A stretch of 42,639 bases of DNA from IMG/VR virus record IMGVR_UViG_3300025687_000095, positions 1-42,639 of that record. One strand, 5' to 3'. Origin of the DNA: a virus. Taxonomy: Duplodnaviria; Caudoviricetes. The stretch's first letter is position 1, and every line of letters begins with the position of its first letter. Both the position numbers and the translations under genes were made by a program. Shown piece after piece: positions 2,094-35,965 of this stretch. A model generated the notes under the pieces. The model searched no databases, was not told the DNA's origin, and saw only the letters and a list, made by a program, of their open reading frames with translations.

Positions 2094-2806
2094 GACAAAC
2101 CTACACTGAGACCGTCGGATACAGTCGACCAGGTAATGGACTGCGCACTGGGCGCGGTTTCAGTAAAGACCACGGCTTCCGACACCACAGCCACCGGCTC
2201 CATCGGAAACATCTTTGGCAGCACATCACCCACCAGATAACCAAACTGCAGCGTCGTCCCTGCGCCCTCGGGCAGATCGTTCCCGTGGGTAACACTGGCC
2301 GTGGGTCCAAACAGCGCCAACACGCCGGTAACGGAAATCGGTTCTTGACCGATGACCCGTGCCCCGCTGTAGGTGGTGGTGCCGTAGCTGCGGTAAAACC
2401 CGCTCAGCTCCAAACCCGCATGGGCCGATCCACTCAGACCGGTTTGCTCTAGTGCGTGGACCCCTACGGCCACAGGCTCTTGGCCAATGACGCGTGATCC
2501 AACCGCACCGCTCAGCGTGAGCGTGTCCTGCCCGCCTTGCGGCAGGTCGTTGCCGACGCTCAGTAGCGCCGCCGCGCCTGTAAGCGCCAGCGTGCCGGTT
2601 ACGCTGATTGGCTCTTGGCCGATATACAGCGTGGCGGCGTATTCGTTTTTGGTCAGGACCGCGTAATTGCCCAGTGGCTCTTGACCGATGGCCAGCGTCC
2701 CTGCGACGGGGCTGAGTCCAAGCGTGCTGTACGTGCCGGTAAGCTCAACACTCCAACCAAGCTGGGTAGTGCCCAGCGTTGCACTACCCAGCTTTGCGTA
2801 GGCCAT
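2090..2806 (-). CDS. Minor tail/virion protein with internal IGQEP repeats
   Basis: 238 aa, Gly/Thr/Val-rich, four IGQEP repeats; overlaps both neighbours. Confidence 0.6.
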   Translation of the reverse strand: MAYAKLGSATLGTTQLGWSVELTGTYSTLGLSPVAGTLAIGQEPLGNYAVLTKNEYAATLYIGQEPISVTGTLALTGAAALLSVGNDLPQGGQDTLTLSGAVGSRVIGQEPVAVGVHALEQTGLSGSAHAGLELSGFYRSYGTTTYSGARVIGQEPISVTGVLALFGPTASVTHGNDLPEGAGTTLQFGYLVGDVLPKMFPMEPVAVVSEAVVFTETAPSAQSITWSTVSDGLSVGLS

Positions 2807-3240
2807 CAGCTCAACTGAAACAATCCGTTCGCGTTCCAGCGCACGATGAAGTTACTGTTGGTGGAGCGGACGTTGTAGCCGGTATCGTCAAGGTCCATGT
2901 ACCCAATCAAGCGATCGGTGCCGGCCAAAGACGCGCCGGCCTGGCGCACCAATACGATATAGCGTGCGGCGATCGACACCGTGGTGCCGTAAGTCACATC
3001 GTCGGCATCAAACTTCACCGTACCGGCCGATTCGGTAAACACCGGACTGGTCAGCGTCTTCGGTGCGTAATCAGCATCGGCGCAGATGTTGGTGACATCG
3101 GAGTACGTGTCGTGGGTAGCGGCCGGCACGTAGTCCGTGGTCGCCAATACCGCGGTCACCGTGTCATTATCCAAATCGACGGTACCGTCCAAGATGTCTT
3201 TCTTAGCACTGTTATAGAGGGTGAATGATCCGACAGACAT
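2806..3240 (-). CDS. Virion structural protein (beta-rich minor tail/decoration type)
   Basis: 144 aa with GGAG RBS; DL..D.....L...Y.P...HD and final W...GLFQL patterns common in phage tail modules. Confidence 0.65.
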   Translation of the reverse strand: MSVGSFTLYNSAKKDILDGTVDLDNDTVTAVLATTDYVPAATHDTYSDVTNICADADYAPKTLTSPVFTESAGTVKFDADDVTYGTTVSIAARYIVLVRQAGASLAGTDRLIGYMDLDDTGYNVRSTNSNFIVRWNANGLFQLS

Positions 3241-3250
3241 GAATAGCTCC

Positions 3251-3907
3251 TTACGCTAACGGGGTTTCGCCCTGGGCGATCATGGGCGCACTTCTGCGCA
3301 ACAGACGATTGAGTTTCTGCTGATAGCGCATGGCGGCACCTTGGTAGATGTTGGGCGCTTCTTCATACACGCCGTAATACTCCATCGCCTTGTCGACGAT
3401 CATGCTGTGCAAAAACGCAGGGATCACAGGCGTATCGGAGGCGGCGCTCAGTTCGACTGGATGCTTCCAGTACGCCAATTGCACGGTGTAGGTGGCATCC
3501 GGCGTCGGATGCAAAATCAAATCCCCATTCGGAATGAAGATCACGTGCGTGGGGCGCTGTTGTTCCACCACGCCCACGTCTTCACGTTTGTATTCCCAAT
3601 GCGGCATGTGCAGCAACGCGGTTTCGGTTGCTTCCCCTTCGCTGGTCTTAAACACCGTGAAGTATTTAGGGTCCCAAACATTCACGTCGTTGAGCGACGG
3701 GGTGTATTGTTGGGTTCCTGCGGAGGTTTGAAAGCTCACCCGCTTCCACAGGAAGTCCCATTCTGCATCGGCTGCTTGTACCTCAAACCAGGCTTCCTTC
3801 ACCCAATTCACGATCCGCGCGGCATCGCCGCTTTGACCGATAACCGATGCCGGTGCATTGACGCCCATTTCGCGCGCCAAGGCTTGGCAGAGTTCAAGGT
3901 AGTTCAT
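3251..3907 (-). CDS. Head-tail adaptor (tail tubular protein A-like)
   Basis: 218 aa; MNYLELCQ start, WDFL, L.P.PD..Y.V, D.P.IP..H motifs; downstream of capsid gene. Confidence 0.75.
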   Translation of the reverse strand: MNYLELCQALAREMGVNAPASVIGQSGDAARIVNWVKEAWFEVQAADAEWDFLWKRVSFQTSAGTQQYTPSLNDVNVWDPKYFTVFKTSEGEATETALLHMPHWEYKREDVGVVEQQRPTHVIFIPNGDLILHPTPDATYTVQLAYWKHPVELSAASDTPVIPAFLHSMIVDKAMEYYGVYEEAPNIYQGAAMRYQQKLNRLLRRSAPMIAQGETPLA

Positions 3908-24878: not shown

Positions 24879-25211
24879 ATGGTGTTTCTGCGAAAAACAT
24901 ACCTGTTCACCCTCGAACTCATTCATTTGTACGCGTGGATGAGCGTGCTGTTCACCATTGTTTACTTGGCTGGGTTGCCGTTTTTTGGTGACGTAACTTA
25001 CGACTTTAGCATCCCAAAAATATGGGTGTTGGTTGTCTATCCGATTTACGGCTTGGCCGGCGCCTTCAAAGTGATCTGGAAAGGTAGTCAGCTCAATTCC
25101 TTTGCATTCCGTACCAATGTCCCCTGGTGGGAGTACGTTTTATTGATTCCAGGCGCCACATTGGTTTTGTACAAAGACTTCTTTGCCAATAAAAAGCCAG
25201 ACTACTTCTGA
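24879..25211 (+). CDS. Membrane protein, moron-like, adjacent to attP
   Basis: 110 aa, about 3 hydrophobic helices, AGGA RBS, AT-richer than flanks, opposite strand to neighbours. Confidence 0.65.
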   Translation: MVFLRKTYLFTLELIHLYAWMSVLFTIVYLAGLPFFGDVTYDFSIPKIWVLVVYPIYGLAGAFKVIWKGSQLNSFAFRTNVPWWEYVLLIPGATLVLYKDFFANKKPDYF

Positions 25212-28200
25212 TTTTTCACTTCAACCTGTAGTGCTCGCATTCGAGCAATCCACTCCCGCATCATTTCTGAGCGGTTTTCTGATCCCTGAATAAGTTGCTT
25301 CCGCATATTCTTCAGCGAAGTTGAGCTGGGCACGTATTTCGGAATCTCGCCTTTTAGCAAACGCGCGACATCCGCCTTTGACATATTGGCAGAGAGTAGC
25401 GATTCGGCAATCTCCTGCTCGGAGAGTCGAAGGGCTTTTGCGGCGCGAACGGTTGCAATCATTTCTCGCCAGTTGCCTTCCCACAAAAGTCGGGATTGCT
25501 CATAGGCATTTGCCATACGGTCTGCGCCACCAATGTTGGGGTTCGTCAGCACGCTGCGAATCGGTCTACCCGCCTCGGCCTTGGCGTCTTTGAATTCCAT
25601 GGCCCGGAATTTCAACGCGGTGGTCATATCCAGGGTTGTGAAGCGGAAGCCGACCCAGGATAACGCTTCGTCACTGAGATCAAATACGCGCCCGGCAGCC
25701 GACTTCTCACCCAAGGCGGCCTTCATGGTCCGCTCTAGGTTTGTCAAAAACCCTGGCATAAGTTTCCCGGTCTTATCTGTTACCGGATAAACGCCGAACA
25801 AGTACCCGACTTGTTTCATGGTCTGAGTGAAGGTGTCGTCATATTCATTGTAAATCTTTCGACCAAACTCGTTTTGGTTATTCCACACCTCAGTAATCGC
25901 CTGGAATGTAATTTCCGGTGCCAGGAATGGGTCAAGCAGGGTTTTAATGCTGTCTGACAATTTGTCTTCAGCCGTTTTGTTGTTGCCGTTGAGCAGTGCT
26001 GTGACCGGCCCTTTCAGATAGGTATATGGGTCGAGATGCGACAGGTCGAGGTAGACCGGCATACCCTTATCGTCAAAACCTAGATACATGAGCTGCGCAT
26101 TGCGCTGCCACTCCGGAGCAATTTTGCGGATTGCTTCATCATCGTCATCACCAATACCGAACATGGCCATGGTCAATGCCGACAGCGCCTGGGCAGCCGA
26201 TGCTGCCAAAGCCAGTCCGGCAGCACGGCGAGTTGCCGCAGCCGTACGGCCCATGGCGATGTCTTCTTTCATGATGCCGAATAGGTGCCAGCTTGTACGC
26301 ATCATTTCCCATGGGAACGACACAAACGTACCGACCAATGGGAACCGACGCAGCCAGCGAATGGCTTTGGGCACCATGGAATAAGTCGGGTAACCGTTAC
26401 GAATACGTTCGGCGGCCAACTCTTCTGCACGTGCTTCGGGAATTCCGGACCGCATCAGCGATTTCTTTTCATTCTCGAAACCAACGATCTTGTGGAAATC
26501 GTCACCAGCGCGGTACACCTTGGTGGCAAAGTTCAAAATCTCCTTGGTCATGCGCACTGGCTTACTGCCCTTGAGCGTGTCCATGTCGGCCACTTCGTCC
26601 AACAACGCACGTAACTCACCAGCGTACGGGTTGTCATGCAGCACACCCATCTCTGCAAGTTTTGCCAAGTAAGCGCGACGATTCTGGTTTTTCTTACCGA
26701 TCCCAAGGTCGGACCAGGTATTCGCAGCGGCTTTCAGCGCATAGCCATAATTGAAATGGCCATTGGCAAACGCAAACATAAAGGCGCTGTAGAAGTTACG
26801 CGCACTGGTGGTTGGAGACAGTACCGTTTTACCGTATTTAACCGAACTATTGATTTTGAGGTAGAAGCGGAACCAACCGGACAACGGGTCTTGCTCAACG
26901 GCGTCTTTCAATGCCTGGGCAAATTCTGGCGTGGCGTAAAGGCCCGCAAGCGGTGCCATAGTGTTTCGGTCGGACGCAGTGATCTGAACGCTCATACGGC
27001 CAGATTCTTTCTTGGAAAGAAATACGCCCAGGTTGTCTTCGCGAATGCTTTTTAGGAAATGGTGATTTGCTACCAGCCAACTGAGCTTGCTCATGGTACG
27101 AACGAAATTCACACGGGCGTCTTTGTACTCGCCCATTAGCGCACGAATTTCTGGAGCAATATCCTTTCGCTTGCGGATGATGCTCAAGTCTTTCTGCCCG
27201 AGCTGCTGCGAATTCATAAACGCAGTCATGCTGCCGGTTTCAACGCCAACTCGCAGAATCTTGTTGATTAGGCCCTCTACACGGTCGGCGCGCTCAACCG
27301 AATCCATTTCACCATCCGGGTCCAGGCTCACTTCGATATACCGACGTGCGGCATCCATCGTGGCGCTGTCTTTGGCAACCTTATCCGGCCAGGTTGGGTC
27401 ATCAAAAACCTGGTAAGAACGGTTTAGGTAATGGCCTTTATTTCCTTCGATCGTCAGGTATGAACGAATCTTTGCCCCGACAATCGGGTCAATTGCCGCC
27501 CACTCCTCTTCCGCAACCTCTTCTCCGCGCACGGCTTTAGCAATGACCGCCAGTGCTTCGTTTTTGCGTTTCGGACTTAGGTCCTCCAGGCGATAGCGGA
27601 CTTCATCGAGTGTCGCTTGCTGCAAGCGGCTTGAGAGCATGTCGACGCTAGTGCGCATAAGGTCGATGCTTGCGCGTAGACCCGGAGCCAATTTGACCGG
27701 ATCGCCTTGCAACGCGGCATTGAGCATGAGCTTTTCAGCATCGCTAAGTTTTTCATACGGCTTGCCGAGCGTCTTTTTAACGTTATCCAGGAAGTCAGCA
27801 ACATAAAACTCGATGTTGATTTCATCGCGATTTTTCATGCCCATGCTTTCGATGCTGCGCTGGAACGCTTCATCCCCGAGCAAACCTTCTTTGAAGAAAA
27901 GGCGTTTGAACCCTGATGCCAGTTTGCTCTTGTCTTTTAGCGACGGGTGGTCGGATTGGACGGTAATGTCTTTACCATCCGCATCGCGACCGATAAACAC
28001 GGTCGTGGTATTACGACTGTTCTGGTTTTTAGTCGTTTTTGGCTTGCGCGCAAATCGTGCCGTAATCTCAACGTCGGCCCCATCGAAGATCACGTAGTTA
28101 TACGTGCCGCCAGTACGCTCTTCGCGAATGGCGTCGATCAGCTCCCGTGAAGCGTCATATCGTGAGATGTTGTCCGCCAAGGCTGCGGTGATGGCCTGCG

Positions 28201-31200
28201 CAGGGTAGTCAAACCCAAGCCAATCATCGGCGTCCAGGGCACGAAGAATGCGCTCTTTGCCTGCAGAAAATTCGCCCGCTTCGACCATCTCCATGACCTC
28301 GGCCATGTCTGCATCTTCAGGGAGGACATTCAAGAACTCGTCGCGAATCTGACGATAAGTACGATTGCGGCTCACCCCATCCAAATACTTATTACCGCGA
28401 ATGCCGAGCGTCTTGAGGTATTCCGATGCCGCCTTGGCCGAACCCTCCTGGTCTTCCAACAATGCGTAAATATCGGAACCTAGCGGATCGCCTTCCAAGG
28501 CCAATTCGCTAAGTGCGGCGCGTACTTGTTCAGACTGCGCGCTTAGCGGCTCATCCAGAAGTAAGTATTCGTTCTCGCTTGGAGCCAGGTCGACTTGATA
28601 GAGTGTGCCGTAGGCATTGATTTCCTTGCCGCTACGATCAAAACCCTTCAGGTTTTCACGCGTAATGCTATTGGCAAAATCGATTGCCGCTTGATTAAAG
28701 CCATTGTAATCACTGACGTACTCTTGAATTTCTTCCGGCGTTCTACCCTGGAGAATTTCTTCCAGGACCGAAGCGCGCTGATATTGCTCTTGGCGAATGG
28801 CCTGCTTATGCAGGGCGCCTACGTCTTCACCATTCAAAGTGTACGACGCGGCCCGCTTGGCAAGTTTCTTCTGATACCACGCGCCGATCTCACGACGACT
28901 GGCAAAATACAGACCCCAGCCAAACGTCTGATTACCCTCGCCGGTGCCCACATTGTCGGTACTGAACGCGTCGACTTCATGCGGGGTGCCGTGCCAGGCG
29001 ACCATGAACCGTGGGCGTTTTGCATCACGGCTGGCGTCCTTCACCCAAGCGCGGTCAACTGAACGCAAAACATGCGCCAAGTCTTTGTCGTTGAACTTTG
29101 TAAGATTGCTGAAACCGAGCTTGCGCATGGCATTGCGCACCCAGCCAATGAATGCGCGAATGGAGTCACGCACCTTTTCCGGCAACGTGCGATACGCTTT
29201 TTCACCCTGAGCAAGCGCAATAAACTCGTCGATCAAATAGCCACGACGTTGCTGCCCATCCATTTTACCCTGCGCACCGAGCTTTCTGGCAGTTTCGTAA
29301 TACGGCTCCATGCGATCGGCAATGCCCAATTGCTCAGCCCATTGACGCACACCCTGCTCGCCGCCCAGTTGCGACCACAGGCGCTGATGCTCGCGCTTGA
29401 TTTGATCCCCAAACAGACTGCGCTGTCCCAAATGCGCACCTTCGTGCAGCATTGTTTCTTCAACCTGCGCCTCACTGGTCATCCGGTTTGCGACGATGTA
29501 CATTTTCCCATCATGCATAACCGCAAGAATTTCACCGCGCGCACTATCCTCGTTCGCCTGCTTCAGTATCTCAGCGGGAAGCGCAGATTCCGTGCGAACG
29601 ACGCGGACCGGACCACGGCCATCAGCGACGTTGACCCTGCGGCCAAACTTTCTGGACGCGATCTTTTCGGCGACCGATATTACGAGTTCTACACCAATCG
29701 CGGTTGGCGCCCCTCGATCCGTGACGACGCCAGGCTCCGTTCTGGAGAACCAGGTACCTCTTGACTCCAGGGTTTCCTTCGCCGTGCTATCAAGTGCTTC
29801 GGCACCCGAAATGATCGTACCGCTCGCACTAACCTCAAACGCATCTAACATGCGCACTAAACCAGCACTGTTAGAAGCGTTATTGTTCAGGAAATTCACC
29901 AGGTTTTTAGCTGCAGCAATGTCTGCCACCTGGTACTTCAAAATGGCACCGTTTGCATTGGTGCGATCAACCGCCTGGTAAATTCGATTGACTTGATCGT
30001 TGTCACGCAGGCGCGCCATTTCATCCGGCGTCATACTCAACACACCCACGACCTGGTTGCGATTGTCGAGCAAGACCAGTGCATTGTCGGATTCCAGTGA
30101 TTCAATTACGGCATAGGCAGAGCGCGGATTAGTGATCTTATCCAGCTCCTTTTTCGGGAGCCGGGAAACCTTACGCTCAGTGACCGAAACATCGCGACGA
30201 CGCAGACGCGGCATGATTTGTATCATTTCGCCGGAATTGGTGTCTTCTGTGAAAAACCAAGTGCTGCTATTACCAAGGCCAAGGACCACGTGCCCCTTCA
30301 ATTCCACGCCCGTACCGTCTAACCAACGTTTAACCACGGCTGTGATGTTGTAATCCGCTCTACTTGCGGTCGGATCGCCAGAGGGGTGGTTATGGGCAAG
30401 ATACACTTGCGCCGCGCCTTCGACTGAAGCGACGGCAGGCGCCAGGACGGATGGGTAGACGGTCGCCTCGTCCTTACCGCCGATGGTATGACGCTGGACA
30501 TCCAAGATGTTTCCGTCTTTATCCAACACCAACGCGGCCATTTGCTCTTGGCCCAGTCGACGTAGGTACGACAGAACGTGAGCGGCTTCTTCCGGGGTGG
30601 TTACCCGATCAACGCCGATTTTTAGGGTTTGGGTGGGGACACGTCGGAAGGTGAGGTTGAACTGGTCGCGGGCTTCTTCTCGGGCGTGACGTACGTCGGC
30701 GGCGGGGTCGAAGTCGAAAGCCCCTTGTTCAGGGGATACCTTTTCGTTCCCCTCTTGGACCGATACGGTGTTGCTTGCTCGCTCATTGTCCTGATTGTAG
30801 CCCTGTTGGGTTTCATATAAAGCTACGCCGCGGTCCGTCTCTTTGGACTCGATAACGTCAAAGAAACGGTCAAAGCCGTCGACAATGCTCTGCACCTCAC
30901 TGTCTATCGGGTACGGATAGGCGTCTGAGATGTCATCCATGCTCAGCAGGGCTGCATCAATCCACGCATGATTATCGACAATGTTTGCCAGGTAGTCGTT
31001 GCGGTAGCCCTTTTCTCTCAGACGCTGGATCAGATACGCCTCAAATGCACGGGCGGTCATCTCAACTTTTGTCGACCAGTACGGTGCGCTACGGAATTTG
31101 TCGAGAGTCTTTGAGCGCGCGGGCATGTCCGTTTCGTTCACGGCTTTAAGCACATCGCCAAATGCCTGAACCATTTCAGGACGCACTGCGCCAGTGTCAC

Positions 31201-34200
31201 CAACTGGATTGCCGAGCGACGCGCTCATCACATCACGTGCATCCCCGGTCATGTATCCATCAGCGCGCTCACGCATGCGCGAGAAATAATTGTCCAGGGC
31301 ATGCCACCATTCATGCCCGAGGCTACCTGCGCCGGACTTCTTGGTGAGATTGATCACAACCTTGCCTGGTTCGTAGTGCGCAGCGGCAGCATTTTTGCCG
31401 CCGATACCACGAGCACCAAACGCAATTGCCAATTCACCATTCAGCGAAATGGCCTTGGGCGGAATATCTAGCAGCGATGCCATATCCAGGAGCGCGTCGT
31501 ATGCTTCGTTTAATGACTCCTGGCGTTTTTTGTTTTCAACCCAATTGCCAAACTCTACGCCACGGAAACCAAACGTTTCTGCAAATTGATCCGGAGTGAC
31601 GTCCAGTCCACCACGCAAGTCGGCACCGACACGGGGTTGGTTTTCTTTGTTACGCTCAAACGGCACCTCACGAAGGTTCTTATAGTCCTGTTCGAGCTGG
31701 GCTTGGTTATCCTTAATATATTGGAATGCAAGTTTGGCTTCGTCGAACGGACCCTTGACCCAAACCAGGGCCTTGCCACTTTTACGTCCAATCCAAATTT
31801 CTTTGTTTCGATCGCCGCGTTTGTACACACTGAATTCCAATGGCTTCTTGGCCACTGGGTTCTTTTTGAACTGCTCAAACCGATCAATAAACTTTTGAAT
31901 CGCTTCCTCGCGGGTGTCGCCTTCCGCCAGGATGCTCGGCATGTTGGAGAACATGGACGCGCCGCCGCGTTTGTTCTCAACGGTCCAAATGGTTTTGGCA
32001 GGGCTGTAGCGTACGCCGTTGTGTACGGAATACTGCGCAGAACTAACACGGATATTGGCCAGGGAAACGTCATGGCCGACACGCTGGTACAGCTCGGCCA
32101 GGGCATCTATTTCGCCACTGGTAGCGAGTACAGTCCGTGCGCGCTCCGGCGGCAACTCCATGAGCTGCGTTGTGAGGTTACGCGCCATTTGCACGGATTC
32201 GACCCAGCGACGTAGCTTGTAGCCTTTGCGCGGCTTTGCCGGGATGGAATCTCGGATGGCGCGAATCGATGCGACGATATACGGGTCCGTGCCCGCATCC
32301 AAAAGCCCCTGGTAATTCGGCACAGGGAATGATTTTGAAAGCGGCTGGGACTCAACGTCTAAATCGCCAGCGCGAGTGAACGAATCTTTAAAACCCGACC
32401 ACACGTCTTTACGTGCGCCGCCGATCTTTTCACCAAAGTCGGTAATGGGCGCGGCGCTCCTTGCAGACGGCGCTGCCGGAGCGACTGCGCTCAGAGCGCG
32501 CTCTTGATCGTCGGGGTGCTCCGCCTTGATCTTTTCACGAATGTCTTCGCCGCGCTTGTACTTGATCCCTAGTACCTCACCGGCCTTAACGGCATCGGCG
32601 TCGCTTAGCGCGTCAATCTTTGGATCGAGCACCGCATGGCGTGCCGCCAGGTCCTGTGCTGCTGCCGGAGCGGAACCTCCACGGTCAATGAACTCTACCT
32701 GCGAAGGATCAAACACCATGGCTTCAACATCGCCATTGGCATAGCGCAGTACAACACCATCGTAGCCCTGCTTTTGAAGCTCGCGCTTATCCAATTCACG
32801 CTGGGTAAAACGTTTCCAGTCGGTATCGTTTTCTCCGCTCAATTCCAGTGGGTTTTGCAGCAGTAAATACGCTTCGCGGACAGTGGCTTCACCGCCAAAA
32901 TCCGCTTTTACGTCGGCATAACCCGCGGCATAGTCTTTGTCTGAAGAGAAATACGCACCGTCTTGTTCGCTCATGTTGAATTGATCGAACGTAGCGTTTG
33001 TGCCGTGGTACATAACCACCGGGGTACCGTCTGCCTTGGATGCCAATCGGGGTTTTGCAGCGCGCGCTGCATCTACCAAGTCGACCTGGGCAGGGTTTGC
33101 ATCCGCAGGGAGATTGGAGCCAGTTAGGCTAAATTGATCGCGTTCGGCATCCGCCGCATCGCGTTGTGATTGCGCCAGGTCCGCTTCGGCCTGCGCGTTT
33201 TGCGCCGCTACTTGGCGGTCGAGGTCGGCTTGGGTGTACGAATTGAGCGATAGAGCGAGCGGATCGTTTTCTGCACTTCCGCTTGCTTCTTCTTGACGGC
33301 TCGCAAAAAGATCAGGGTTCGCTGAAACTTCTCCTGGTCCTGCGCGATCATTGCCTTGGTCAAGTCCAAGGCCACGGCTTTGCGCAGCTTCGTCAGGTTG
33401 ACCTCCAAATTCCCCAGTTTGTAGAGATTCGGATGGGCGGCCATATCGGCCTGGATTTGCTCGATCGTCAGCTTGCTCATTTCGTCCACTCTCAAGAAGT
33501 TCAAACAGTTTACCTGCAACCACGGCGTCTGAGTCATTACGCTCAAAAAGCCCTTCCACCTGGCTCTCAAGCCCCTCCGCAACCGCGCGCTGGCGCAGCT
33601 CGTCTAGAGTCAGCGCAGTGGTAACCTCAAGCTCCGGATCGAAATCAGCGCTTTCATACTCATCCAGGGCATCGACCAATTCCGCGGCCTCAATGGGCGG
33701 AATCCCCGCATCGCGCGACTCCAAATCCTCCAGGGCTGCAGCCTGCTGCGGGATGAACATCCCTGCAACACCGCCGTCCATTTCATCCAGTACGCTGGAG
33801 ACAATCGCCACCTGGCGTTCGGTTAGGCCGGTGTCTCCCGCCGCAGCACGATCCACCAGGTTCAGCAAATCTTTGCGGCTGATGTCTTCGCCCAGGTTTT
33901 GGACCCATTGTGGGTTGACCGACTTGGTGCGAATTGTGTCGCCGCCAAAATCGTAATTCAGGTCGCCGGTTTCGGAAGTGCGCTGTGCGCCTTGCGCCGG
34001 GATGACTGAAATTCCGCCGCCCGGTACCCAATTTTGCTCGACAAAACCGCGCAAACTGTCGCGATAGTTGCCATAGGCCAAACGGGAATCGACGTATTCC
34101 GTAGGCATTTCTGCAGACGTTCCATAAAACGCACGCACCAGTCGCTCTTTCAGGACCGACTTACGGCCCAAGACTGGGAGTCCGTTGTCTTTCGCCACGG

Positions 34201-35965
34201 CTTGAAGTTCTTTCAAGCCCATCGCATCCAGCTCAGCGAACGACGGAACATTGACCAGGGGTGCAGTCTGCGCGGAAAGCGGCTCGGTGACCGTCGCGTC
34301 ATCGATCGCCGGGGTTTCGTCAGCAAGGTCGTTTAAGGCTTCTGCTGCCCGCTGTGCCTGGAGTTCATTGCTCAGCTCGCCGGTATCGACCGGGGCAATT
34401 GCAGGCATTTCATCTGCTGTAAACGCGGCCCGTGCATCTTCACGCGCTTTGACGCGAGCGGGGTCCGCCAGGATTGCCGCCTGCTCCTCTTTGGCGTTTT
34501 TCAGCGCACGATTGAGGCTGGCTTTAATCTCTTTGCGGTCGATCCCAATGTCGTTGTATTCCGGCGCAGTGTCGACCGTTTTCAGCTCTTCACGAATGGC
34601 CGCAATGCGCTGTTCCGGATCAAGATTCGTAAACCAATCGTCACTCAATGTGATGGGGTCAACCGCGGCCGCGGCTTCTGGCGCAATTTCCGGCGCCACG
34701 CCTGCCAAGGCGGCGTCGAGTGCGTCGCCGGCATCGGTTTGATCCAGTTCTTGCGCCAGGTTTGATTCTTGCGCGATCACATCTTCCGGCGTACTGGTAC
34801 CGGGATCGTGAATAGGCGCATCGGTCGGCGCGCGTTGCCCTTGGCGGGCAGCCCAGGTGGAGGTGGCAATATCGCCAAACCCGCCAGGCCCCATTTCTAA
34901 GGCGACTTCAAGGCCAACTTCTTCTGGATCAACTTTGCCTGTCGCTAAATATTGCCCTTGAATCTCACCCCCGGCCGCACCTGTAACTTGCGCACCCATG
35001 GCGGCGGTGCCGCGCGTTGCAGTCGAGAGCGGACCTTGCGCATTTTTAAGCAATTTGATGCCGAGCAAATTTGCAGTCGCGTCCCAGGCTGCAATCGACA
35101 AGCCCTTAGTGGATGCGCGATCCAACATGTCTTCACGTACAGTTGGGTCATTTAATGCCGCAGCAATTTGCGCCGGGTCTTCAGGGTTGCCACCACGCTC
35201 ACGAATAAATTCGCGAATTTGTGCGCCCGTTTCAATCAAATACGAGCCAAGCGCAGTACCGGCAAAGAATCCGGTTGTACCGCCGATCGCTGCACCTGGG
35301 CCACCACCGATAAGCGCGCCGGTTCCAGCACCGGCTTTTGCACCGGCAATCCCTGGTGCCCACGTACCGATCAGATTTGCAGCTTGCTCTGAGGTGGCAT
35401 AGAGAAACCCTTCCGGATTGGTAACCCCTTCGAGTAAGGTTTCACCGAGGAAGTCGATGGCCTCAAGTGCCGCAGTACCGTAGTTACCCTTTTTCCAGGC
35501 ATCCCCAACCTGTACGGCTTCTTCGCCAATAACTTCGTAATACGAATTCAGTTCTTCAGGGCGATCGTATGGCCTTGCAGCATTGGCAATGACATTGACC
35601 AATTGGGACTTGGACTCTTCATCCAAATTGTCCCATTGCCCGGTTGCCAACAAGGCAGCGTAGTTGGCTTTTGCCTGATCAAGCCCTTCAACAACTAAGC
35701 GCCCTGTATTGCCAAAAACCCCTAATTCTTTAGTGGGGTCTTTCTCAGGTAAACCTGCCCAAAGCCGTGCCTGCCCCTCTTCCTCTTCACGCGACATACG
35801 AAAATCGCGATCACCCTGAATCCAGTTTGAGACGTTGCTTAATGTGTTGGAGGTTTCAACAGGCTGGACGTCTTCGGGAATCAGATCATCGAATGCGCCA
35901 GAAACAGAAACGCCACCTGATTCGGTGGCGTTGTTGGGGATGAGGTCATCGAATATTGACGGCAT
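25202..35965 (-). CDS. Giant polyvalent internal virion (ejected) protein
   Basis: 3587 aa, AAGGA RBS; Gly/Ala hydrophobic N-region, SAP-like motif, two ART-like domains, LPD5/LPD1-like region with HEWWH, JAB HNHPSG, HEGAH peptidase; last gene of the ejection cluster. Confidence 0.85.
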   Translation of the reverse strand: MPSIFDDLIPNNATESGGVSVSGAFDDLIPEDVQPVETSNTLSNVSNWIQGDRDFRMSREEEEGQARLWAGLPEKDPTKELGVFGNTGRLVVEGLDQAKANYAALLATGQWDNLDEESKSQLVNVIANAARPYDRPEELNSYYEVIGEEAVQVGDAWKKGNYGTAALEAIDFLGETLLEGVTNPEGFLYATSEQAANLIGTWAPGIAGAKAGAGTGALIGGGPGAAIGGTTGFFAGTALGSYLIETGAQIREFIRERGGNPEDPAQIAAALNDPTVREDMLDRASTKGLSIAAWDATANLLGIKLLKNAQGPLSTATRGTAAMGAQVTGAAGGEIQGQYLATGKVDPEEVGLEVALEMGPGGFGDIATSTWAARQGQRAPTDAPIHDPGTSTPEDVIAQESNLAQELDQTDAGDALDAALAGVAPEIAPEAAAAVDPITLSDDWFTNLDPEQRIAAIREELKTVDTAPEYNDIGIDRKEIKASLNRALKNAKEEQAAILADPARVKAREDARAAFTADEMPAIAPVDTGELSNELQAQRAAEALNDLADETPAIDDATVTEPLSAQTAPLVNVPSFAELDAMGLKELQAVAKDNGLPVLGRKSVLKERLVRAFYGTSAEMPTEYVDSRLAYGNYRDSLRGFVEQNWVPGGGISVIPAQGAQRTSETGDLNYDFGGDTIRTKSVNPQWVQNLGEDISRKDLLNLVDRAAAGDTGLTERQVAIVSSVLDEMDGGVAGMFIPQQAAALEDLESRDAGIPPIEAAELVDALDEYESADFDPELEVTTALTLDELRQRAVAEGLESQVEGLFERNDSDAVVAGKLFELLESGRNEQADDRANPGRYGRPSESLQTGEFGGQPDEAAQSRGLGLDQGNDRAGPGEVSANPDLFASRQEEASGSAENDPLALSLNSYTQADLDRQVAAQNAQAEADLAQSQRDAADAERDQFSLTGSNLPADANPAQVDLVDAARAAKPRLASKADGTPVVMYHGTNATFDQFNMSEQDGAYFSSDKDYAAGYADVKADFGGEATVREAYLLLQNPLELSGENDTDWKRFTQRELDKRELQKQGYDGVVLRYANGDVEAMVFDPSQVEFIDRGGSAPAAAQDLAARHAVLDPKIDALSDADAVKAGEVLGIKYKRGEDIREKIKAEHPDDQERALSAVAPAAPSARSAAPITDFGEKIGGARKDVWSGFKDSFTRAGDLDVESQPLSKSFPVPNYQGLLDAGTDPYIVASIRAIRDSIPAKPRKGYKLRRWVESVQMARNLTTQLMELPPERARTVLATSGEIDALAELYQRVGHDVSLANIRVSSAQYSVHNGVRYSPAKTIWTVENKRGGASMFSNMPSILAEGDTREEAIQKFIDRFEQFKKNPVAKKPLEFSVYKRGDRNKEIWIGRKSGKALVWVKGPFDEAKLAFQYIKDNQAQLEQDYKNLREVPFERNKENQPRVGADLRGGLDVTPDQFAETFGFRGVEFGNWVENKKRQESLNEAYDALLDMASLLDIPPKAISLNGELAIAFGARGIGGKNAAAAHYEPGKVVINLTKKSGAGSLGHEWWHALDNYFSRMRERADGYMTGDARDVMSASLGNPVGDTGAVRPEMVQAFGDVLKAVNETDMPARSKTLDKFRSAPYWSTKVEMTARAFEAYLIQRLREKGYRNDYLANIVDNHAWIDAALLSMDDISDAYPYPIDSEVQSIVDGFDRFFDVIESKETDRGVALYETQQGYNQDNERASNTVSVQEGNEKVSPEQGAFDFDPAADVRHAREEARDQFNLTFRRVPTQTLKIGVDRVTTPEEAAHVLSYLRRLGQEQMAALVLDKDGNILDVQRHTIGGKDEATVYPSVLAPAVASVEGAAQVYLAHNHPSGDPTASRADYNITAVVKRWLDGTGVELKGHVVLGLGNSSTWFFTEDTNSGEMIQIMPRLRRRDVSVTERKVSRLPKKELDKITNPRSAYAVIESLESDNALVLLDNRNQVVGVLSMTPDEMARLRDNDQVNRIYQAVDRTNANGAILKYQVADIAAAKNLVNFLNNNASNSAGLVRMLDAFEVSASGTIISGAEALDSTAKETLESRGTWFSRTEPGVVTDRGAPTAIGVELVISVAEKIASRKFGRRVNVADGRGPVRVVRTESALPAEILKQANEDSARGEILAVMHDGKMYIVANRMTSEAQVEETMLHEGAHLGQRSLFGDQIKREHQRLWSQLGGEQGVRQWAEQLGIADRMEPYYETARKLGAQGKMDGQQRRGYLIDEFIALAQGEKAYRTLPEKVRDSIRAFIGWVRNAMRKLGFSNLTKFNDKDLAHVLRSVDRAWVKDASRDAKRPRFMVAWHGTPHEVDAFSTDNVGTGEGNQTFGWGLYFASRREIGAWYQKKLAKRAASYTLNGEDVGALHKQAIRQEQYQRASVLEEILQGRTPEEIQEYVSDYNGFNQAAIDFANSITRENLKGFDRSGKEINAYGTLYQVDLAPSENEYLLLDEPLSAQSEQVRAALSELALEGDPLGSDIYALLEDQEGSAKAASEYLKTLGIRGNKYLDGVSRNRTYRQIRDEFLNVLPEDADMAEVMEMVEAGEFSAGKERILRALDADDWLGFDYPAQAITAALADNISRYDASRELIDAIREERTGGTYNYVIFDGADVEITARFARKPKTTKNQNSRNTTTVFIGRDADGKDITVQSDHPSLKDKSKLASGFKRLFFKEGLLGDEAFQRSIESMGMKNRDEINIEFYVADFLDNVKKTLGKPYEKLSDAEKLMLNAALQGDPVKLAPGLRASIDLMRTSVDMLSSRLQQATLDEVRYRLEDLSPKRKNEALAVIAKAVRGEEVAEEEWAAIDPIVGAKIRSYLTIEGNKGHYLNRSYQVFDDPTWPDKVAKDSATMDAARRYIEVSLDPDGEMDSVERADRVEGLINKILRVGVETGSMTAFMNSQQLGQKDLSIIRKRKDIAPEIRALMGEYKDARVNFVRTMSKLSWLVANHHFLKSIREDNLGVFLSKKESGRMSVQITASDRNTMAPLAGLYATPEFAQALKDAVEQDPLSGWFRFYLKINSSVKYGKTVLSPTTSARNFYSAFMFAFANGHFNYGYALKAAANTWSDLGIGKKNQNRRAYLAKLAEMGVLHDNPYAGELRALLDEVADMDTLKGSKPVRMTKEILNFATKVYRAGDDFHKIVGFENEKKSLMRSGIPEARAEELAAERIRNGYPTYSMVPKAIRWLRRFPLVGTFVSFPWEMMRTSWHLFGIMKEDIAMGRTAAATRRAAGLALAASAAQALSALTMAMFGIGDDDDEAIRKIAPEWQRNAQLMYLGFDDKGMPVYLDLSHLDPYTYLKGPVTALLNGNNKTAEDKLSDSIKTLLDPFLAPEITFQAITEVWNNQNEFGRKIYNEYDDTFTQTMKQVGYLFGVYPVTDKTGKLMPGFLTNLERTMKAALGEKSAAGRVFDLSDEALSWVGFRFTTLDMTTALKFRAMEFKDAKAEAGRPIRSVLTNPNIGGADRMANAYEQSRLLWEGNWREMIATVRAAKALRLSEQEIAESLLSANMSKADVARLLKGEIPKYVPSSTSLKNMRKQLIQGSENRSEMMREWIARMRALQVEVKNQK
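33208..33480 (-). CDS. Nested overprinted 90-aa basic helical protein (+1 frame of giant gene)
   Basis: MSKLTIEQIQADMAAHPNLYKLGNLEVNLTKLRKAVALDLTKAMIAQDQEKFQRTLIFLRAVKKKQAEVQKTIRSL...; GAGAGTGGA upstream of ATG; manual count GC3 56/70 in this frame versus 19/70 in the host frame. Confidence 0.65.
   Translation of the reverse strand: MSKLTIEQIQADMAAHPNLYKLGNLEVNLTKLRKAVALDLTKAMIAQDQEKFQRTLIFLRAVKKKQAEVQKTIRSLYRSIRTPKPTSTAK

Follow-up and report, generated by a model that had tools for sequence, protein, structure and literature searches.

Nested reading frame in a giant polyvalent protein gene

An open reading frame of 90 codons lies inside the gene of a giant phage protein, on the same strand and in the +1 frame. 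Does it encode a protein of its own, and to which part of the giant would that protein relate? The DNA analysed (the window) is a virus record of 42.6 kb. It hosts portal, terminase, capsid, adaptor, DNA polymerase, helicase and integrase genes, identified by Pfam and PHROGs matches, and therefore likely belongs to a temperate podovirus-like phage. No tRNA genes were found in the window.

The giant (P0002, 3,587 aa) is encoded at 25202-35965 on the minus strand, as are all its features listed below, and was defined by its ORF and domain matches. By content it is a polyvalent protein, as LPD5, LPD1, two ART-PolyVal and RadC domains were identified by Pfam in one large polypeptide. A SAP-like motif (giant aa 584-612, 34130-34216; Pfam, below cut-off) is followed by a first ART-PolyVal domain (aa 978-1091, 32693-33034), by the core made of LPD5 (aa 1316-1464) and LPD1 (aa 1621-1707; 30845-32020 for the two), and by a RadC-like JAB domain (aa 1789-1897, 30275-30601), all from Pfam. 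A second, split ART-like stretch is found at about aa 2324-2573 (28247-28996; Pfam, PHROGs). Its place among structural genes, and the analogy with gp47 of phage phi24B, make the giant likely an ejection protein. The phi24B gp47, which carries LPD5, LPD1 and LPD38, was detected in virions and proposed as an ejection protein (bioRxiv 10.64898/2026.04.10.717836). A 110-aa hydrophobic ORF without family (24879-25211, plus strand) adjoins the integrase gene, is convergent with the giant gene and overlaps its stop by 10 nt. It is a candidate moron or exclusion protein.

The nested ORF (33208-33480, minus strand; ORF list, codons, AlphaFold) sits wholly within the giant ORF (35965-25202) and covers giant aa 829-920. 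Its product, P0001, has a net charge of +11 and is predicted to form a helical hairpin, in line with the basic helical protein envisaged in an earlier, sequence-only reading of this DNA. The elements which that reading placed at the start of the ORF, namely ATG 33480, the Shine-Dalgarno (SD)-like stretch GAGAGTGGA (33493-33485) and TAAACT (33512-33507), are all present. The duplex energy of the SD, -6.5 kcal/mol, falls in the top 6.5% among the 108 +1 ATGs of the giant gene, and RNA structure at the nested start is the weakest of the 108. The promoter suggested by the -10-like TAAACT found no support and has been rejected: a consensus scan returned 0 sites, and the best promoter match (8/12, 19-nt spacer) is not above chance, since 25% of random 150-nt gene stretches do as well. 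The +1 frame is open already 41 codons 5' of the ATG, in a segment of 131 stop-free codons that is the second longest of 119; TTG 33582 and ATG 33537 are alternative nested starts within it. The interval from the nested stop to the ART-PolyVal domain at giant aa 978, estimated earlier at about 180 nt, measures 174 nt.

Codon usage of the nested frame

The GC3 counts previously given for the first 70 codons, 56/70 in the nested and 19/70 in the host frame, are exact. Nested GC3 is the same quantity as host GC1, high anyway over the whole acidic region (0.72-0.80 at giant aa 691-930), and the informative number is therefore the dip in host GC3. Synonymous resampling predicts 40.1 +- 4.1 instead of 19, and 0/100,000 resamplings were as low. 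The A/T excess at host third positions has z=5.0 at the ORF; in seven stretches elsewhere in the giant, some of them acidic linkers, z lies between -1.8 and +0.2. An open +1 frame is by itself cheap: 90 codons remain open in 11% of synonymous resamplings, because only 7/90 positions permit a stop, hydrophilic linkers being devoid of the xTA/xTG codons that create +1 stops. The frame is both open and provided with the ATG in 5% of resamplings.

The codon log-likelihood (+1 minus host frame) reaches its maximum, +30.5, at host aa 827, the mean of the giant being -43.5 (sd 15.4). Outside the nested ORF the maximum is -12.3 in the giant, and -6.5 among 6,099 windows of 20 other genes. The nested stretch is hence the only part of the giant or of the 20 other genes in which codons fit the +1 frame better, with a signal of about 4.8 sd limited to the ORF. 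The score is positive in each 10-codon block from giant aa 821 to 910; it starts in the block hosting the ATG, as the sum over aa 791-820 is near -4, and fades at 910. The final ten codons resemble a read-through tail. The longest +1 frame of the giant is another one, which encodes 183 aa over the LPD5 region (31555-32106, minus strand). It has a codon score of -107 and looks like a chance frame.

Close variants, that is 8 other members of the cluster of the giant and 4 runs, have zero changes within the nested ORF. Nearly all close-variant differences are found in a Gly/Ala-rich segment of the N-terminal part of the giant (window 34913-35555, aa 137-341). Of the amino acid differences among full-length cluster members, 19/21 map in aa 137-341, and the remainder of the protein, nested ORF included, is almost invariant; the listed read variants of the giant all fall at 34913-35258 (19/19). 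Locus searches carried out with giant aa 620-1100, 60-400 and 2766-3543 retrieved the same phage or no match only. L085, which emerged in single-protein locus searches, was rejected as a chance match.

Nested frames in related giants

The giant of the window and 79 giants fetched by the LPD5-LPD1 core have been surveyed. Among +1 ORFs opening with ATG and spanning at least 40 codons, 44/699 score higher in the codon model than the host frame does, and these are spread over 37 of the 80 genes. After clustering at 80%, a nested candidate is found in 26/49 other clusters. ORFs in the +2 frame are few, and 0/48 were positive in the same test (1/33 in the clustered set). The +2 frame of the giants and the 20 curated genes of the window were used as controls. 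They replaced a set of 'other genes', in which 11/293 +1 and 8/36 +2 ORFs were positive, because several of the 'host' ORFs in that set were shadow frames of real genes. The 38 best candidates, selected on codons or position without regard to the SD, have an SD energy of -5.1 vs -2.9 for 4,890 background +1 ATGs (P = 5e-5, with members not all independent). No positive nested ORF was found in the giant of AU6Stx1, a related Stx phage, or in the F116 genes, and the four named phage records carry no annotation of a nested candidate.

Conservation is higher in the nested than in the host frame for 55/584 +1 pairs, and for 0/31 +2 pairs. The opposite holds for 430 pairs, which is what chance ORFs lying over real domains should show. 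Amino acid conservation in nested families is 0.65 vs 0.49, 0.74 vs 0.58 and 0.69 vs 0.39, nested and host frame, respectively. Four nested families of related giants have the nested third position as their most variable nucleotide, and in 3/4 the host third position varies less than in the control. Such patterns would argue for purifying selection on the nested frame in these other families only.

Several unrelated nested families occupy several linkers of the giants. A second conserved family, 64-75 aa long and preceded by strong GAGGTG/AGGAG sites, is located earlier in the giant, usually just before InPase (PF18823). It includes L020 (giant aa 732-795), L022, L026-L030, L054 and L057, and more distantly L010, L045, L011-L017 and L036. 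Nested ORFs also lie over the C-terminal part of Pfam LPD37, in L010 (aa 2075-2157), L056 (aa 1428-1494) and L023 (aa 2803-2914), and the LPD37 model may in part reflect the shadow of a gene hidden there. Gene 57 of the cultured phage Dartukuta (L089; MW749009) features unannotated +1 ORFs at aa 1084-1139 and 2794-2853. The former has a codon score of 12.8 and resembles by eye the nested ORF of L007/L034; the latter is within an insertion, where an ART domain begins.

The stops of the 38 nested ORFs overlap host GTA (16), CTG (15), TTA (4) and CTA (3) codons, and never ATG, GTG, TTG or ATA, which account for 45% of background +1 stops. The missing overlaps with host starts possibly reflect avoidance of reinitiation into the frame of the giant. 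Termination-reinitiation into the host frame has been rejected, as 0/38 nested stops overlap host ATG/GTG/TTG vs 35% of all +1 stops.

A conserved start at the end of the upstream domain

The nested start is located at the end of a domain, spanning giant aa 620-830 (33476-34108), which was defined by the alignment of relatives. This upstream domain features an R..S.NP.W.Q motif followed by an acidic helical part, and has no match in Pfam, PDB sequences, PDB folds or Atlas. More carriers were fetched with its alignment, and 6/61 genome pattern loci matched the profile. A +1 start with SD is found within -4..+3 codons of the domain end in 11/11 loci hosting the full domain, window included, 5 of which are absent from the alignment defining the domain. 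The chance of finding an ATG in this interval ranges from 0.03 to 0.28 per locus. Starts are ATG in 10 loci and GTG in one, SD energies vary from -5.6 to -8.6, and the host residues across the start differ between loci (N, H, S). SD-like purines can come from the host codons for E and G at this boundary. The count excludes the duplicates L094, L095 and L097 and the partial domain matches L125 and L038/L042/L048; in the last three a conserved ORF led by AGG[AT]A[AG] is found further on. Three proteins without DNA, also outside the count, have boundary residues (N-D, Y-A, N-G) compatible with an ATG.

The ORFs opening in this slot encode peptides unrelated in sequence across lineages. They are K/R/P-rich, with a net charge of +2 to +11, a basic character owed in part to the reading of E/Q-rich linkers in the +1 frame. 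P0001 has 90 aa, and the peptides of relatives 35-55 aa, one being ended by the contig edge. These have no detectable homology to P0001 (best E about 0.1); the P0001 tract L29-A37 resembles in alignment the start of two of them, at a non-significant E of about 0.15. Codon scores are positive in 6 and negative in 3 of the 9 slot ORFs scored, and third-position skew is significant in all but three of 10 slot loci.

At the other end the slot is bordered by the motif L[TN]SYT...DF.LTGS[DN]R (giant aa 904-968, 33062-33256), recognized in relatives. The L[TN]SYT...DF.LTGS motif was found in 60 of the giants collected. Of the 8 representative loci with DNA, 7 have a positive +1 ORF whose end lies just 5' of L[TN]SYT. 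The nested ORF of relatives stops at the first residues of the motif, and that of the window extends about 12 codons into it.

Codon signal, start signal and the slot conserved in relatives lend good support, as far as sequence comparison goes, to the independent translation proposed in the sequence-only reading. The 90-codon +1 frame is in all probability a real nested gene, previously unannotated.

P0001 and its predicted partner

Single-sequence AlphaFold predicts two helices in P0001 (H17-45 and H49-81; mean pLDDT 86.9), and the protein is modelled as a basic helical hairpin, a fold that is easy to predict. No homologues were detected by word search or in 1.84 billion representatives, in viral contigs beyond the same phage, in Pfam or PHROG, or in alternative frames of the 80 giants. 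It had been suggested to check whether homologues are nested or standalone, and linked to ART domains; none of the 90-aa peptide turned up. The best Atlas match (0.81) is a lead only. Atlas recognition is 2030, and 91% of known families reach 2300. Comparison to viral folds gave nothing significant (best E 0.15).

A complex was modelled from three chains, the upstream domain, the first ART domain and P0001 as partner, with own alignments. The score was 0.70 (three runs, 0.21, 0.70 and 0.71), the best of three controls scoring 0.35. Two unrelated partners scored 0.00, and 0.35 was obtained when ART was kept and the upstream domain replaced. The mark used is reached by 116/157 solved complexes and 2/215 mismatched pairs, figures that apply only roughly to a three-chain model with own alignments. 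Partner pLDDT is at least 64. The runs share only about 1% of contacts, and the predicted pose is therefore not reproducible. In the best run P0001 residues 33-63 contact the upstream domain only, at giant aa 624-635 and mainly at aa 707-731 (33773-33847). The closest predicted contact residues, A720, S723 and S724, vary among relatives; conservation at the interface is 0.57 vs 0.43, a difference confounded by buried residues. Structure prediction of the pair, proposed earlier, thus placed P0001, in its best run, on the upstream domain of the giant and not on ART.

The reading preferred here, tentatively and with the odds slightly against it, is that P0001 is a co-translated partner of the upstream domain of the giant (aa 620-830). 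Ribosomes would load at the internal SD on the own late structural transcript of the giant gene, and P0001 would bind the nascent giant at its adjacent upstream domain as the giant is synthesized and packaged, acting as a built-in cap or chaperone. Late co-expression from the structural operon would be assured, and linkage to the giant fixed. The hydrophilic linker, nearly free of +1 stops, would make the slot cheap to keep, and the slot peptide would diverge fast between lineages.

Alternative explanations

P0001 could be the product of a real gene and act apart from the giant, as a basic protein involved in DNA binding, capsid charge neutralisation or an own host target, the linker being just a stop-free nursery. 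The lack of sequence kinship among the K/R/P-rich slot peptides, and the several unrelated families lodged in several linkers, are what such a role would predict. It leaves unexplained a start fixed at one domain boundary in 11/11 loci, and the modelled preference of P0001 for the upstream domain over the two unrelated partners also speaks against it. Action apart from the giant is unlikely, about half as probable as the partnership with the upstream domain. A little less probable is that translation itself is the function, internal ribosome loading in a 10.8-kb message serving to tune output or stability of the giant mRNA, with peptide sequence of little weight. Conservation of the start site and SD, and not of peptide sequence and length, fits this explanation. 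It is at odds with the nested families, in which amino acids are better conserved than in the host frame, with the lack of coupling to an in-frame restart (0/38 nested stops vs 35% of background), and with the prediction that P0001 folds well.

In the version favoured by the sequence-only reading, P0001 is an immunity protein, which would keep the neighbouring ART domain in check in the cell producing the phage and accompany this domain during domain shuffling. A positive +1 ORF ends at most 120 aa upstream of 4/16 ART domains vs 0.84 expected (P about 0.01, in a comparison not matched for linkers), and a fifth +1 ORF, in phage Dartukuta, overlaps the ART start. The lineage of the window is the only one to combine a longer, predicted-folded slot protein with an ART domain behind, and the complex control retaining the ART chain still scored 0.35. 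Yet 12/16 ART domains have no nested ORF upstream, and a strong nested ORF is found in 17/38 giants lacking ART. An ART domain is behind the slot in 1/10 loci with downstream sequence, and within 150 aa in 1/8 L[TN]SYT motif loci, in both cases the window only; travel with ART is not borne out by these counts. The second ART stretch of the giant has no positive-scoring nested ORF nearby, and the ORFs adjacent to ART domains show no similarity to P0001. Contacts to ART are absent from those listed for the best complex run. No homology of P0001 to known ART antitoxins was detected by Pfam, PHROG, sequence or viral-fold searches. As the start is tied to the end of the upstream domain, and ART is found in the window only, the slot belongs to the upstream domain, bordered by the L[TN]SYT motif. 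ART would be, judging from these loci, a lineage-specific neighbour. Immunity tied to ART is accordingly improbable, more so than either of the explanations above. Of the roles listed in the same reading, that of chaperone or partner survives, with the predicted partner being the upstream domain instead of ART.

That no gene exists, and the frame is open by chance in a hydrophilic linker, is very improbable. The 5% of resamplings in which the frame is open and has the ATG, and a product without database homologue and with Atlas recognition under 2300, would suit a chance frame, and are outweighed by a codon signal confined to the ORF and by a start and SD conserved in 11/11 loci. Least probable of all is that ribosomes reach the +1 segment by frameshifting, in which case the giant would be cut short at about 830 aa and end in a tail of 90 aa, or that compensating indels have shifted an old segment out of the host frame. 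The lack of +1 stops ahead of the ATG suits this explanation, and a tail in cis could also contact the upstream domain, but the codon signal begins at the ATG block and not earlier, and SD-start pairs are conserved at the domain boundary.

Comparison with known systems

The partnership of P0001 with the upstream domain recalls lambda Rz1 inside Rz, where a small +1 gene is wholly contained in a larger one, its position is conserved, and the products are partners (PMC6139136). In the survey of embedded spanins, 196 o-spanins were not identified, as gene callers miss such genes (PMC6139136). Rz1 is a lysis lipoprotein and resides in a short host gene. P0001, in contrast, is cytoplasmic, basic and helical, and encoded in the linker of a 10.8-kb virion gene. 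The slot sequence is not conserved, and binding in the nested case is predicted. P0001 lacks cysteine and signal segments and its host is not a spanin, so that it is not an embedded o-spanin of the Rz1 type.

The insertion described in ShiLan (PMC11855218) is similarly an out-of-frame gene hidden where the host frame stays open. It is a homing selfish element, an HNH gene in a phage methylase. The slot holds instead unrelated peptides, and P0001, which features neither HNH, other nuclease family nor nuclease fold, is not a homing insertion of this type. Viral +1 overprinted genes (PMC8227390) share the same-strand internal overlap, the orphan product, and disorder in one frame relieving constraint. 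They differ since the disorder in the present case belongs to the host linker, and codons are genome-like in the nested frame. The codon criterion (PMC8227390) would therefore call the small gene ancestral, and the phylogenetic criterion young, the two criteria giving opposite age orders for the two frames. The term overprinted, which had been applied to the small gene and implies that it is the younger, agrees with the orphan product and disagrees with nested codons more genome-like than those of the host.

The host gene matches the polyvalent proteins described by Iyer et al. (PMC5512222) in having LPD5, LPD1, ART-PolyVal and RadC. 'Overlap' and 'linker' occur 0 times in the available text of that work, where the 'nested' passage deals with a hairpin fold. 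The arrangement had been thought undescribed for phage polyvalent proteins, and a literature search, with supplements and most subscription papers outside its scope, likewise found no description of nested or overlapping genes in polyvalent or ejection-protein genes. Nested +1 genes are already known as a kind, and it is inside polyvalent giants that no printed description was found. The window adds the slot start conserved without peptide homology, the direct test against ART linkage and the predicted partner domain.

Implications

It is conceivable, though doubtful, that giant ejection proteins generally encode their own cognate partners, in domain-linked +1 slots in which the start is conserved across distant phages and the peptide co-evolves with the neighbouring domain. 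Such partners might serve as assembly caps in the producing cell, or as self/non-self locks on kin ejection proteins that enter it. What passes for 'low-complexity linkers' in polyvalent virion proteins would then be shadows of hidden genes. Virion proteomes searched against annotations are blind to nested peptides, and that of phi24B was searched, according to the preprint text available, against annotation alone (bioRxiv 10.64898/2026.04.10.717836). Solubility and packing of proteins of 2,500-4,000 residues are regarded as an open question in the same preprint. A nested partner would provide a clean test of solubility and packing of the giant, as its start codon can be eliminated without altering the giant protein.
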